A stretch of 8,099 nt of DNA from an uncultured archaeon (GTDB lineage Archaea > Iainarchaeota > Iainarchaeia > Iainarchaeales > CSSED10-239), in the NCBI GenBank assembly GCA_964463155.1, contig CAYXAY010000032.1, positions 1 to 8,099 of the forward strand, given 5' to 3'. How positions within the stretch are numbered: the first letter of the stretch is position 1; every line of letters begins with the position of its first letter. The translations under genes and the position numbers were made by a program. The notes beneath the pieces are model-generated. The model searched no databases, was not told the origin of the DNA, and worked only from the letters and a program-made list of their open reading frames with translations. Shown piece after piece: positions 1-3,120 of the stretch.

Positions 1-1215
1 CAAAAACTATATGAAAAAGGATATATCTATGAATCCGTTTATGAGGGATTATATTGTGTAGGTTGTGAAGGATACTTCACACAAAAAGATTTAGTAGATG
101 GCAAATGTCCAATACATCAAAAAGAACCAATTGCAATTAAAGAAAAAGGATATTTCTTCAAATTATCTAATTTTAAAGAAAAACTAATAGAAGTATATGA
201 TAAAAACCCAGAACTAATTGTTCCAAAAGGAAAAAATACAGAAATATTAAATAGATTAAAAAATGAAGAACTAAAAGACTTATATATTAGTAGAAAAAAC
301 TTCAAATGGGGAATTCCTTTACCTTGGGATAAAGAATATGTATTATGGGTGTGGTCAGATGCTTTATTCAATTACTTATCAGCCCTTGAAAACACAGATT
401 CAGAGAAATTTAAAAAATATTGGCCTGCAGATGTTCATCTAATAGGTAAAGACATATTGTGGTTTCACACAGTTATTTGGCACTCTTATTTATTAGCTTT
501 AGAGTTACCACTACCTAAACAAGTATTTGCACACGGTTGGTGGACAATCTCTGGACAAAAGATGTCAAAGACTTTAGGTAATGTAGTTTATCCAGGGGAT
601 ATAGTAAAAAAGTATAGTAAAGATATTTTCAGATACATACTAATGAAAGAAATTGGCTTTGGAAGCGATGGGGACTTCTCAGAAGATAGAGTTATACAAT
701 ATCAGAACTCTGATTTAGCAGACAATTTAGGGAACTTAGTAAACAGAACACTTGTAATGACAAAGAAATACTTTGATGGAGTTGTTCCTAAACCTGCAGA
801 ACTAGAAGAAGTAGATAAAGAACTAATTGAAAAAGCAAATAATGTTATTAATATCTATAATCAAAATATGGATGATTTTAAATTTAATGTTGTATTAACA
901 GACATTTGGGCACTTCTAGATAATGCTAATGCTTATATTAATAAAACAGAGCCCTGGAATCTTGCAAAATCTGGAAAAATCGAAAGAGTACAAACAATTA
1001 TATATAATTTAAATGAAATAATTAGAATTGCAGGAATATTAATGTTTCCATTTATACCAGAAACTGCAGAAAAAATAGAATCAATCTATAATAAAAAGAT
1101 AAATTCTTTTGATGATGCAAAATGGGGGTTATTAGTTCCTGGATTTAAATTACAAAAAGACAATTTAATTTTATTTAATAAATTGAAAACAGATGAAATT
1201 ATAAAGAAAGAATAA
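1..1215 (+). CDS. metG: Methionyl-tRNA synthetase (class I), 5'-truncated by the window edge; no C-terminal Trbp111-like tRNA-binding extension
   Basis: Frame 1 is open from nt 1 with no stop before TAA 1213-1215, so the track's GTG start at 349 is internal. Zinc-knuckle region YCVGCEGYF...GKCPIH. Typical core HLIGKDILWFHTVIWHSYLLA...VFAHGWW. KMSKS loop present as KMSKT (nt 559-573). Anticodon-binding helical region DNLGNLVNR... Confidence 0.95.
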   Translation, partial: QKLYEKGYIYESVYEGLYCVGCEGYFTQKDLVDGKCPIHQKEPIAIKEKGYFFKLSNFKEKLIEVYDKNPELIVPKGKNTEILNRLKNEELKDLYISRKNFKWGIPLPWDKEYVLWVWSDALFNYLSALENTDSEKFKKYWPADVHLIGKDILWFHTVIWHSYLLALELPLPKQVFAHGWWTISGQKMSKTLGNVVYPGDIVKKYSKDIFRYILMKEIGFGSDGDFSEDRVIQYQNSDLADNLGNLVNRTLVMTKKYFDGVVPKPAELEEVDKELIEKANNVINIYNQNMDDFKFNVVLTDIWALLDNANAYINKTEPWNLAKSGKIERVQTIIYNLNEIIRIAGILMFPFIPETAEKIESIYNKKINSFDDAKWGLLVPGFKLQKDNLILFNKLKTDEIIKKE

Positions 1216-1217
1216 TT

Positions 1218-2153
1218 ATGAAATATACTAAAGACCTACTATGGACTAAAGGAATGGCTGTTTCTGAGCTTGTTGATGGATTTTCTTCTATTGGTTTTCA
1301 ATCAGCAGAGGTGTCAAGGGCAGCAACATTAATTGAGAAGATGAAAAAAGAAGGAGCAAAGGTTTACTTGTCTTTTACTTCTAATATGGTTACTTCGGGT
1401 CTTCGCGGTTTTTTTGCACAAATATTGAAACTAAAGATTGCTAGTGTTGTTTGTACAACTGTTGGGGCTGTTGAAGAGGATATAATGAAGGCAAATGGCG
1501 AAAAGTTTATCTTAGCATCCTTTAAGGTAGACGACCAAGAGCTTTATGAGAAAGGAGAAAACAGAGTCGGTAACATCTTAATTACAAACGAAAGCTACTT
1601 AAAATTTGAAGGTAGTATGCAGGGCAATCTCCTTGAGCTTTACAAGCAAAAGAAAGTTTGGTCTACTTGTGAACTTTTAAGAGAGATTGGGCTTAAGTTA
1701 AATGACGAAAACTCTTTCTTGTACCAAGCAGCAAAAAACAATATACCAGTATTTTGCCCAGCAATAACAGACGGTTCTTTTGGCTTCCACTTATATCTTT
1801 TCCAGCAAGACCATAAGGATTTTATGGTTGACATAATCTCTGACTTTAAACAAATAATCTTTTCAACAACACATGACGAGAAGAAAGGAATTATTGCGCT
1901 TGGTGGTGGCATTGCTAAGCACCACGTCATCTTAACAACACTAATCAACGGAGGAGCAGACTATGCCCTTTACATGACAACTGCTGGTTCTCGCTCAGGA
2001 AGCCTTTCCGGAGCAACAACAGACGAAGCAAAATCCTGGGGTAAGATTAAAGACGAAGCAGATGCTGTAACAGTTATTGGAGATGTTACAATCACATTCC
2101 CACTTGCAATGATAAAAGCACTTGAAGACCTAACAAAAGAAGGAATTATATGA
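1218..2153 (+). CDS. dys: Deoxyhypusine synthase
   Basis: 311 aa. Family-typical stretches: FTSNMVTSGLRG, VVCTTVGAVEEDIMK, NIPVFCPAITDGSFG and the NAD-site GGGIAKHH. TDEAKSWGKIK contains the catalytic lysine of the SWGK motif (AAG 2043-2045). Starts 2 nt after the metG stop. Confidence 0.95.
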   Translation: MKYTKDLLWTKGMAVSELVDGFSSIGFQSAEVSRAATLIEKMKKEGAKVYLSFTSNMVTSGLRGFFAQILKLKIASVVCTTVGAVEEDIMKANGEKFILASFKVDDQELYEKGENRVGNILITNESYLKFEGSMQGNLLELYKQKKVWSTCELLREIGLKLNDENSFLYQAAKNNIPVFCPAITDGSFGFHLYLFQQDHKDFMVDIISDFKQIIFSTTHDEKKGIIALGGGIAKHHVILTTLINGGADYALYMTTAGSRSGSLSGATTDEAKSWGKIKDEADAVTVIGDVTITFPLAMIKALEDLTKEGII

Positions 2154-2482
2154 GTGAAAAAACAACAAATCCAGAAACAAAAGAATACAATAAAAAATTA
2201 ATATTGGCATTTTTCTTAGTGGTGATAATTATCTTTACTGGAATTTTTATATTAAGTAAAATTGAAAACTGGACCAATGTAGATTCTGTTTATTTTACAA
2301 TTATGACTTTAACAATAATTGGTTTTGTGGGCATTGTTCTAAAAACTGTTGCCGACAAATTAATAATGTCTGTTTATGCACTTATTGGTGTCGCCACCTT
2401 TTTATTCTGTATTGGAATAATTGCTGAGCATTATTTCTTTAGAAGATTTAAAAATATAATACAAATATTGATAATAAAGTAA
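2150..2482 (+). CDS. Minimal two-TM pore-loop (K+ channel-like, Ion_trans_2-type) membrane protein with degenerate selectivity filter
   Basis: 110 aa. TM1 is LILAFFLVVIIIFTGIFILS. The pore-helix/filter-like segment DSVYFTIMTLTIIGFVG (filter nt 2306-2332) compares with the canonical YFsvvTlTTVGYGD. TM2 is MSVYALIGVATFLFCIGIIAEHYF. The ATG overlaps the dys stop (ATGA 2150-2153). Confidence 0.6.
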   Translation: MSEKTTNPETKEYNKKLILAFFLVVIIIFTGIFILSKIENWTNVDSVYFTIMTLTIIGFVGIVLKTVADKLIMSVYALIGVATFLFCIGIIAEHYFFRRFKNIIQILIIK

Positions 2483-2583
2483 AAAAAAGTAAGTGTAGGT
2501 CTAAAGACAATGGATAGAAAAATCAAATTTATTGAAAGAATGAAACTTGCAAAGAAAAAACAAAAAGAAGAAACTGATTAAAA

Positions 2584-3120
2584 ATGAAAGACCATTATGA
2601 AATTGAAGTTAAAGTTTTAGAGATTAACAAAAAAGAACTAGAAAGGAAACTAAAAGAAATAGGTGCAAAGAGGCTTTTCTCTTATAGAAAAATTATACAA
2701 GAAAACTATGAGAACTCTGAACTAAAAAAGAAAAGTGCAGCAATAAGAGTAAGACAACTCGGCAAAGAGGTTTTTATAACATTTAAGCAATTTAAAGAAA
2801 TAAAAAATAATATTAAATGTTGTAGAGAAATAGAGTTTCAAGCAGTTTCTGATTTTAAAACGATTCAAAATATTTTCACTTTTCTTGGCCTAAAAAGATA
2901 TCACAGGATAGAAAAAACAAGAACAACCTATATTCTTGGAACAACAACCTTTGACATAGACAGCATATCAAAACCATTCAAGATTCCTTGCTATTATGAG
3001 ATAGAGACAAAAACCTATAAAGACATAGATAAGATATTAAAGCAATTAGATGTTCCAAAAGAAAAGGTCTTGCCATGGGGAACAAAGCAACTTTTAGCTT
3101 ATTATAAAAAACTAATTTAA
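2584..3120 (+). CDS. CYTH-domain protein (CyaB-like class IV adenylate cyclase / triphosphate tunnel metalloenzyme family)
   Basis: 178 aa. N-terminal ExExK signature YEIEVK (nt 2599-2613). The remaining CYTH beta-strand motifs follow in order: AIRVRQ, ITFK, REIEFQ, IEKTRTTY, FDID, YYEIE. Confidence 0.85.
   Translation: MKDHYEIEVKVLEINKKELERKLKEIGAKRLFSYRKIIQENYENSELKKKSAAIRVRQLGKEVFITFKQFKEIKNNIKCCREIEFQAVSDFKTIQNIFTFLGLKRYHRIEKTRTTYILGTTTFDIDSISKPFKIPCYYEIETKTYKDIDKILKQLDVPKEKVLPWGTKQLLAYYKKLI

Follow-up and report, generated by a model that had tools for sequence, protein, structure and literature searches.

Is the 110-codon open reading frame that overlaps the 3' end of a deoxyhypusine synthase gene a miniature ion channel of a new kind, given that it reads TLTIIGFVG at the place of the K+ channel signature TxxT[VI]G[YF]GD? 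The locus lies in a stretch of 8,099 nucleotides (called the window below, as the whole DNA that was analyzed) from a relative of Candidatus Iainarchaeum, a DPANN archaeon of the phylum Iainarchaeota. The source assembly (G000) has 726 kb in 48 contigs, is 87% complete and has a G+C content of 31.6%. The original prediction, made from the letters of the sequence, had described a minimal pore-loop channel with a non-canonical filter, coupled to deoxyhypusine synthase (dys). The features of the locus are as follows.

1-1215, plus strand: 3' part of metG, an open-ended reading frame that we take, from its translation, to encode methionyl-tRNA synthetase; first gene of a tightly packed block.
1218-2153, plus strand: dys, deoxyhypusine synthase, 311 amino acids (Pfam DS, E 4.7e-98).
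2150-2153, plus strand: ATGA overlap of the dys stop codon with the channel start codon, read from the sequence.
2150-2482, plus strand: pore-loop (Ion_trans_2) open reading frame with derived filter, 110 codons (Pfam, HMMER, AlphaFold2, Foldseek).
2192-2266, plus strand: predicted TM1, outer transmembrane helix, residues about 15-39 (within model helix 8-39).
2276-2311, plus strand: predicted pore helix, residues 43-54 (model helix 43-54).
2306-2341, plus strand: filter segment T53-L64, TLTIIGFVGIVL, TLTTIGYGDxVP in the relatives (codon comparison with the genomes G002 and G004).
2348-2449, plus strand: predicted TM2, inner helix, residues about 67-100 (within model helix 67-109; aligns with TM2 of the relatives).
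2480-2482, plus strand: in-frame TAA at codon 111, truncating the gene in comparison with its closest relatives (read-through translation; collinear codon alignment with G002).
2483-2581, plus strand: what is left of the ancestral C-terminal tail, with 32 codons and the ancestral TAA (2579-2581), in the frame of the open reading frame (Smith-Waterman).
2584-3120, plus strand: CYTH-domain gene (CyaB-like), the downstream neighbor (Pfam CYTH, E 3e-9).

By profile and predicted fold, the 2150-2482 product is a member of the pore-loop tetrameric cation channel superfamily. The profile search that the original prediction had called for matched residues 22-93 to Pfam Ion_trans_2 (PF07885) with 40.6 bits (E 2.5e-10; the curated cut-off is 22.5 bits). 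Furthermore, the protein matches solved pore domains of K2P, NaK and Kv channels at E values of 5e-8 to 1e-4, and in the HMMER alignment to K2P chains TLTIIGFVG falls on TLTTIGFGD. The AlphaFold2 monomer model of the 110-residue protein, which was built on 44 family sequences and is driven by the alignment of canonical channels, has a pLDDT of 91.4 and consists of helices 8-39, 43-54 and 67-109; the top fold matches found for it in the PDB with Foldseek are NaK pores (probability 1.00, TM 0.72/0.81). Conserved residues are retained in TM1 (G31 and E39) and around the pore helix (W41, Y48 and F49). In a phylogenetic tree, the protein falls into a clade of small channels with 98/99 support, and its core is 49-54% identical to those of P0002, P0003/G004, G002 and MDD3244776.1, the last from a metagenome-assembled genome of a Candidatus ainarchaeum sp. 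The reading frame and its TM1/pore helix/filter/TM2 layout, as first described, are borne out by these results.

The departure from the K+ signature lies in five codons. Compared with G002 and G004, ACA is replaced by ATA, TAT by TTT, GGR by GTG, GAT by GGC and CCA by CTA, and the codons that flank these changes are identical to those of the relatives. The corresponding amino-acid changes are T56I (the S4 threonine), Y59F, G60V (the second glycine of GYG), D61G and P64L; G58 is kept, and the S4 threonine, the second glycine, the aspartate and the proline are all lost. These columns are nearly invariant. Among 288 aligned pore domains, which come from the 150 best of 1.84 billion cluster representatives, threonine or serine occupies the I56 column in 281 of 288, glycine the V60 column in 280 of 284, aspartate the G61 column in 254 of 285 and proline the L64 column in 233 of 276. 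On these column counts, the departures are far from chance, and the filter is indeed non-canonical, as had been noted. All four filter sites are needed for K+ selectivity: replacement of the S4 threonine abolishes it in NaK2K and MthK, and selectivity is absent from the NaK and CNG channels, which have only two or three of the sites (PMC12658365). Shaker needs the aspartate of GYGD in order to conduct, whereas BK does not (PMC2229624). Because the window protein has isoleucine at the S4 threonine, valine at the second glycine and glycine at the aspartate, we infer, in agreement with the original prediction, that it cannot be a K+-selective channel. With valine in place of the second glycine, the filter may be blocked or may collapse. 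As for the source of the new filter, gene conversion was considered and rejected, since G000 contains no second copy or similar stretch and therefore no donor. A single patch event was rejected as well, for at the nucleotide level the filter (0.25 per site) is no more divergent than the remainder of the gene (0.24-0.55 per site).

The small size of the protein, in turn, is secondary. Relatives have uninterrupted frames of 142-182 amino acids, and behind the TAA at codon 111 the window still encodes a tail that is recognizably homologous to theirs. The Smith-Waterman score of this remnant is 77 against the tail of P0002 (shuffles 29.5 +/- 4.9) and 72 against that of G002 (shuffles 31.3 +/- 5.1); in neither case did any of the 5000 shuffles score as high. 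Its RKIKFIE block is identical to the relatives in amino acids and differs from them by synonymous changes in 5 of 7 codons. Since the tail is homologous and its identical residues carry synonymous differences, purifying selection acted on it, judging from the codons, until a short time ago, and the stop codon is a young one. The ancestral gene would thus have had ~143 codons; across this frame there is one stop codon and no frameshift. The description of a minimal design with essentially no cytoplasmic domain therefore fits the 110-residue reading frame as it stands, but not the ancestral gene: the sequence comparison points to a premature in-frame stop as the origin of the size. Note that the remnant tail contains a 23-codon open reading frame (2510-2581, ATG at 2510) that begins MDRKIKFIERMK and could, in principle, be translated alone.

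How widespread is the variant? In a six-frame search of G000 and 60 related genomes, homologues were found in 15 of the 61, G000 included, i.e. the family is patchy. All 13 complete homologues (from 12 genomes) have the canonical filter T(L/V)(T/S)T(I/V)G(Y/F)GD..P, so the TIIGFVG filter, whose conservation in related archaea had been raised as a question, is not conserved there. Among 139 small homologues, 136 have a canonical filter; the three others are the window protein, P0071 and P0107, all of them singletons. In P0071 and P0107, only the outer filter is changed (GVVM and GHPN, respectively, in place of GYGD), and the scaffolds are intact. The 90% cluster of the window protein has one member from one contig, and the nearest of the 1.84 billion cluster representatives, P0002, is 53% identical and possesses a canonical filter. 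A word-based homologue search with the window protein alone returned only the protein itself, and most of what a profile search brought up were canonical channels. A scan with the canonical-filter pattern showed, among the matches listed, that channels of the small canonical type occur widely across CPR bacteria and DPANN archaea. A second instance of the new filter was sought with a back-translated pattern over metagenome contigs, which gave one chance match only. This match (L075:1958-2440) is TIIGFVGIVLK inside an unrelated 160-residue open reading frame on a metagenome contig; the sequence of this frame looks PIN-like to us, and a small antitoxin-like reading frame precedes it. The rewritten filter is thus, according to this survey, a derived trait of one assembly and not a mark of the family, which speaks against the distinct type of minimal channel that had been proposed. 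Its restriction to one assembly also counts against the view, considered below, that the protein was retained.

Two homologues deserve mention for their own state. The copy in G008 (L011:1483-1900; G008:C5, about 35990-36400), located in a second gene context, is broken by in-frame stops after the beginning of TM2 and in the tail, with its TLTTIGYGD filter intact; this is ordinary decay within the same family. The orthologue in G005 (L005:1480-1914; G005:C52) has a 143-codon open frame with no ATG, GTG or TTG upstream of TM1. The earliest start codon listed for it is a TTG that lies within the filter, and public gene calls for its cluster range from 77 to 140 amino acids.

The window protein can be compared with several known systems. 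The closest are the small two-helix proteins of DPANN archaea annotated as 'potassium channel family protein', which belong to the same clade and share the TM1/pore helix/TM2 scaffold and a homologous tail; within the genus, the small channels also share dys upstream and the CYTH gene downstream. These channels are, as far as found, experimentally uncharacterized. They differ from the window protein in having TLTTIGYGDxVP in a frame of 142-182 residues, compared with TLTIIGFVGIVL and a stop at codon 111. Viral Kcv-type miniature K+ channels (about 82-100 amino acids) consist of a bare TM1-pore-TM2 unit with the canonical filter TxxTxGFGD and work as K+ channels. The window protein resembles them in size and in this bare layout; its small size is, however, secondary and due to a nonsense mutation, and a specific relationship to Kcv channels was not seen in homology searches. 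The comparison with Kcv that had been drawn originally thus holds for size and not otherwise. NaK of Bacillus cereus (PDB 2AHY, 3E83) is the best structural match of the model and matches in sequence at E about 1e-5. It is not the closest sequence relative of the window protein, which is known from its sequence and a model. The NaK filter, TVGDGN, keeps the S4 threonine and both glycines, whereas the window protein has lost the threonine and the second glycine; the TVGDG(N) motif is absent (TIIGFVG), and the likeness is in the predicted fold only. NaK and its CNG-mimicking mutants are likewise two-helix pore-loop channels, in which loss of canonical filter sites makes the pore non-selective (PMC12658365). 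Substitutions in the same signature sequence are also known from Kir3.2 weaver G156S, Shaker D447N and the S4 Thr-to-Ala mutants of MthK and NaK2K, and single changes of this kind abolish selectivity or conduction (PMC12658365, PMC2229624). However, those changes are single and either engineered or disease-associated, whereas the window protein combines five natural ones, including the replacement of the second glycine by valine. Kv7.3 T313I was considered as a further analogue and discarded, for it concerns a different threonine, which our alignment places at T53 of the window protein.

As for the gene neighborhood, the ATGA overlap is real: the channel ATG (2150-2152) overlaps the dys TGA (2151-2153), as originally reported, and an identical four-base overlap is present in G002 (L003, reading frames 1312-1824 and 1821-2759, both on the minus strand). 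Against the NCBIfam models for deoxyhypusine synthase, the dys protein reaches E 1.7e-97, which is below their equivalog cut-offs, and the CYTH-domain gene, which starts 2 nucleotides past the ancestral channel stop codon, matches TIGR00318 at E 3e-12, below the cut-off of that model. A scan for bacterial promoters and terminators, a type of scan not applicable to archaea, gave results at chance level. The association of the channel with dys in an operon, proposed originally, did not extend far: dys adjoins the channel gene in G000 and G002 only, two open reading frames lie between them in G004, where the CYTH gene overlaps the 3' end of the channel gene, and dys was not found in the 1.5-kb flanks of homologues at 12 other loci (other genera and other gene contexts of this genus). 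The inserted reading frames of G004 (L004:773-1494; G004:C64) encode 145 and 70 amino acids. The two genes are linked through local synteny in a compact genome, within the genus only, and this linkage gives no evidence that they are functionally tied.

K+ uptake in this archaeon is provided for by other genes. The 2150-2482 reading frame is the one Ion_trans_2 gene in G000, and Kup was looked for in this assembly and not found. Genes for TrkH and TrkA are present and intact:

G000:C4:12790-14410, minus strand: TrkH (493-codon open frame) and TrkA, adjacent, K+ uptake system.
G000:C2:50541-50888, plus strand: second TrkA_N domain, in a 581-codon frame.

Because TrkH and TrkA are intact, the channel is dispensable for K+ uptake in this genome.

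Has the gene, then, been decaying or has it been retained? Outside the filter, it resembles its canonical relatives. Of the family columns conserved to at least 85%, 7 lie within residues 53-66 and 6 lie elsewhere; the window protein departs at 4 of the former and at none of the latter (Fisher one-sided p = 0.049). With the threshold set at 60% or more, 18 columns lie outside the filter and the protein departs at 4 of them, the family mean being 0.22. Relative-rate (Tajima) counts with a consensus outgroup and without the filter are 9-14 for window-specific changes and 10-13 for the relatives; the relative-rate ratio is about 1.0-1.8. The ratio of amino-acid to synonymous differences over TM1, pore helix and TM2 is 33:13 and 35:16 between the window gene and its relatives, and 28:11 for the two canonical relatives compared with each other. 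Gene-wide relaxation of constraint, looked for outside residues 53-66, was thus not found, the conserved columns being kept at the background rate of the family. Note that these constraint statistics have few sites and p values of about 0.01-0.05, for a gene that was chosen for its odd filter. The dys genes provide a clock: their four-fold-site p-distance is 0.33-0.35 for all three species pairs, which, after a rough correction, corresponds to about 0.25 neutral substitutions per site and lineage. This amount would be expected to change about 43% of unconstrained codons, and in the filter 5 of 10-12 are changed. Whole-gene neutrality would have added several stops, indels and many changes of the conserved scaffold, of which, beyond the TAA, none is seen. 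Uniform neutral decay therefore fits poorly, since the conserved residues, the substitution pattern and the frame outside the filter resemble those of canonical relatives; its rough joint likelihood is about 0.01 or less at any duration.

The lineage itself may evolve quickly. The dys protein of the window (1218-2150, compared with L003 and L004) differs from those of G002 and G004 in 10-12% of its amino acids, and the latter two differ from each other in 3.5%, at equal synonymous distance; the window branch is the long one in dys as well, about 5-fold by a three-point estimate from identities. In this lineage, protein evolution thus seems to be faster or selection to be relaxed. In the maximum-likelihood tree of the channels, the window branch is also long (1.26; 1.0 without the filter). 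It was considered as a sign of acceleration of the gene, and this was rejected, the time since the split from the sisters being equal and the Tajima counts, with the filter excluded, near parity.

Taken together, we favor, with a probability of roughly 0.45, the reading that a protein lacking a K+ filter was retained over a long period, in the role of a pore that is non-selective, conducts weakly or is silent, and that its truncation is a recent event. Its ancestor would have been a canonical small two-helix K+ channel of the kind found in many DPANN-type archaea. In this lineage, the five near-invariant filter positions would have changed (T56I, Y59F, G60V, D61G and P64L), while ordinary constraint continued to act on both transmembrane helices, the pore helix, the C-terminal tail and the reading frame. 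The protein would still insert in the membrane and form a tetramer on the conserved scaffold, and it would be co-translated with deoxyhypusine synthase through the ATGA overlap. As the four-site K+ filter is lost, K+ would not be selected, and the pore would be a non-selective or poorly conducting cation pore, in principle NaK- or CNG-like, or silent. Finally, a single recent nonsense mutation (TAA 2480-2482) would have removed the conserved tail, which may be the first step of gene loss. Of this picture, the sequence data show that the protein belongs to the family, that its filter is derived, that it is truncated and how constraint is distributed, whereas its assembly, its conduction and any present use are inferred. 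Nearly as likely, though itself tentative, is an early pseudogene, in which the channel was dispensable in a shrinking genome and a filter mutation killed it, followed by more filter changes and the nonsense mutation, the rest having not yet decayed. The premature in-frame TAA with a tail still recognizable downstream, the loss of four or five near-invariant residues, the singleton status of the sequence, the patchiness of the family with a broken copy in G008, the presence of TrkAH as the main K+ uptake system and the faster protein change of the lineage even in dys all agree with it. So does the character of the filter changes, each of the five being a single second-position change, three of them to T, as AT-biased mutation gives. 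However, neutral decay should strike conserved sites evenly, and 5 of ~10 filter codons would imply ~40% elsewhere together with stops and indels, whereas change outside the filter is at background level with no frameshift and one stop codon; moreover, the ordinary decay in G008 left TLTTIGYGD intact despite its stop codons. Both of these readings are among the options that had been named at the outset, namely a non-selective channel, a relic or a subunit of something else.

A bolder proposal, which we regard as rather unlikely, is that the TIIGFVG protein is a selected and working 'GYG-less' miniature pore, and that tiny DPANN channels repeatedly remodel the outer half of the filter on a kept scaffold, so that what was a K+ channel becomes either a non-selective cation pore or a membrane protein that does not conduct. 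Outer-filter changes have in fact occurred in three independent singletons, i.e. GFVG in the window, GVVM in P0071 and GHPN in P0107. In a variant of this proposal, the TAA would be read through or the 23-codon remnant would be made separately. A new class of minimal channels with a purpose-built non-canonical filter, working with the hypusine pathway in a metG-dys-channel operon, is very improbable and already largely refuted by the homologue survey: besides the ATGA coupling to dys in two genomes and the intact scaffold, which would suit it, there is no second example of the filter in public data, the closest relatives are canonical K+ channels, adjacency to dys is limited to one genus with two reading frames intervening in G004, and the minimal size is due to a recent stop codon. 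We give equally little credence to an artefact of assembly or consensus, according to which the TAA, the filter codons or both are sequencing errors or a minority variant and the real gene encodes a normal K+ channel of ~143 amino acids. The assembly is indeed fragmented (48 contigs) and 87% complete, the TAA lies at the edge of an A-run (AAG TAA AAA AAA), and one base change restores the continuous 143-codon frame; but sequencing errors do not typically take the form of six or more separate substitutions, as found in the filter, the codons on either side are identical to those of the relatives, and errors in A-runs are usually indels, whereas the frame is kept here.

In sum, the family is a known one, and the window protein is a lineage-specific variant of it whose filter has been rewritten and which was truncated a short time ago. 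Whichever reading is right, the suggestion that an ion channel is functionally linked to hypusine synthesis cannot be upheld. If the gene is only decaying, it documents the death of a channel gene in a reduced symbiont genome and calls for caution with 'minimal' or 'non-canonical' designs when one metagenome-assembled genome is their only source. Should the protein still be in use without its filter, it would amount to a natural experiment on a bare K+-channel scaffold that lacks its signature sequence, including the second glycine that is rarely lost in nature, and its compactness would suit it to work on selectivity and folding.
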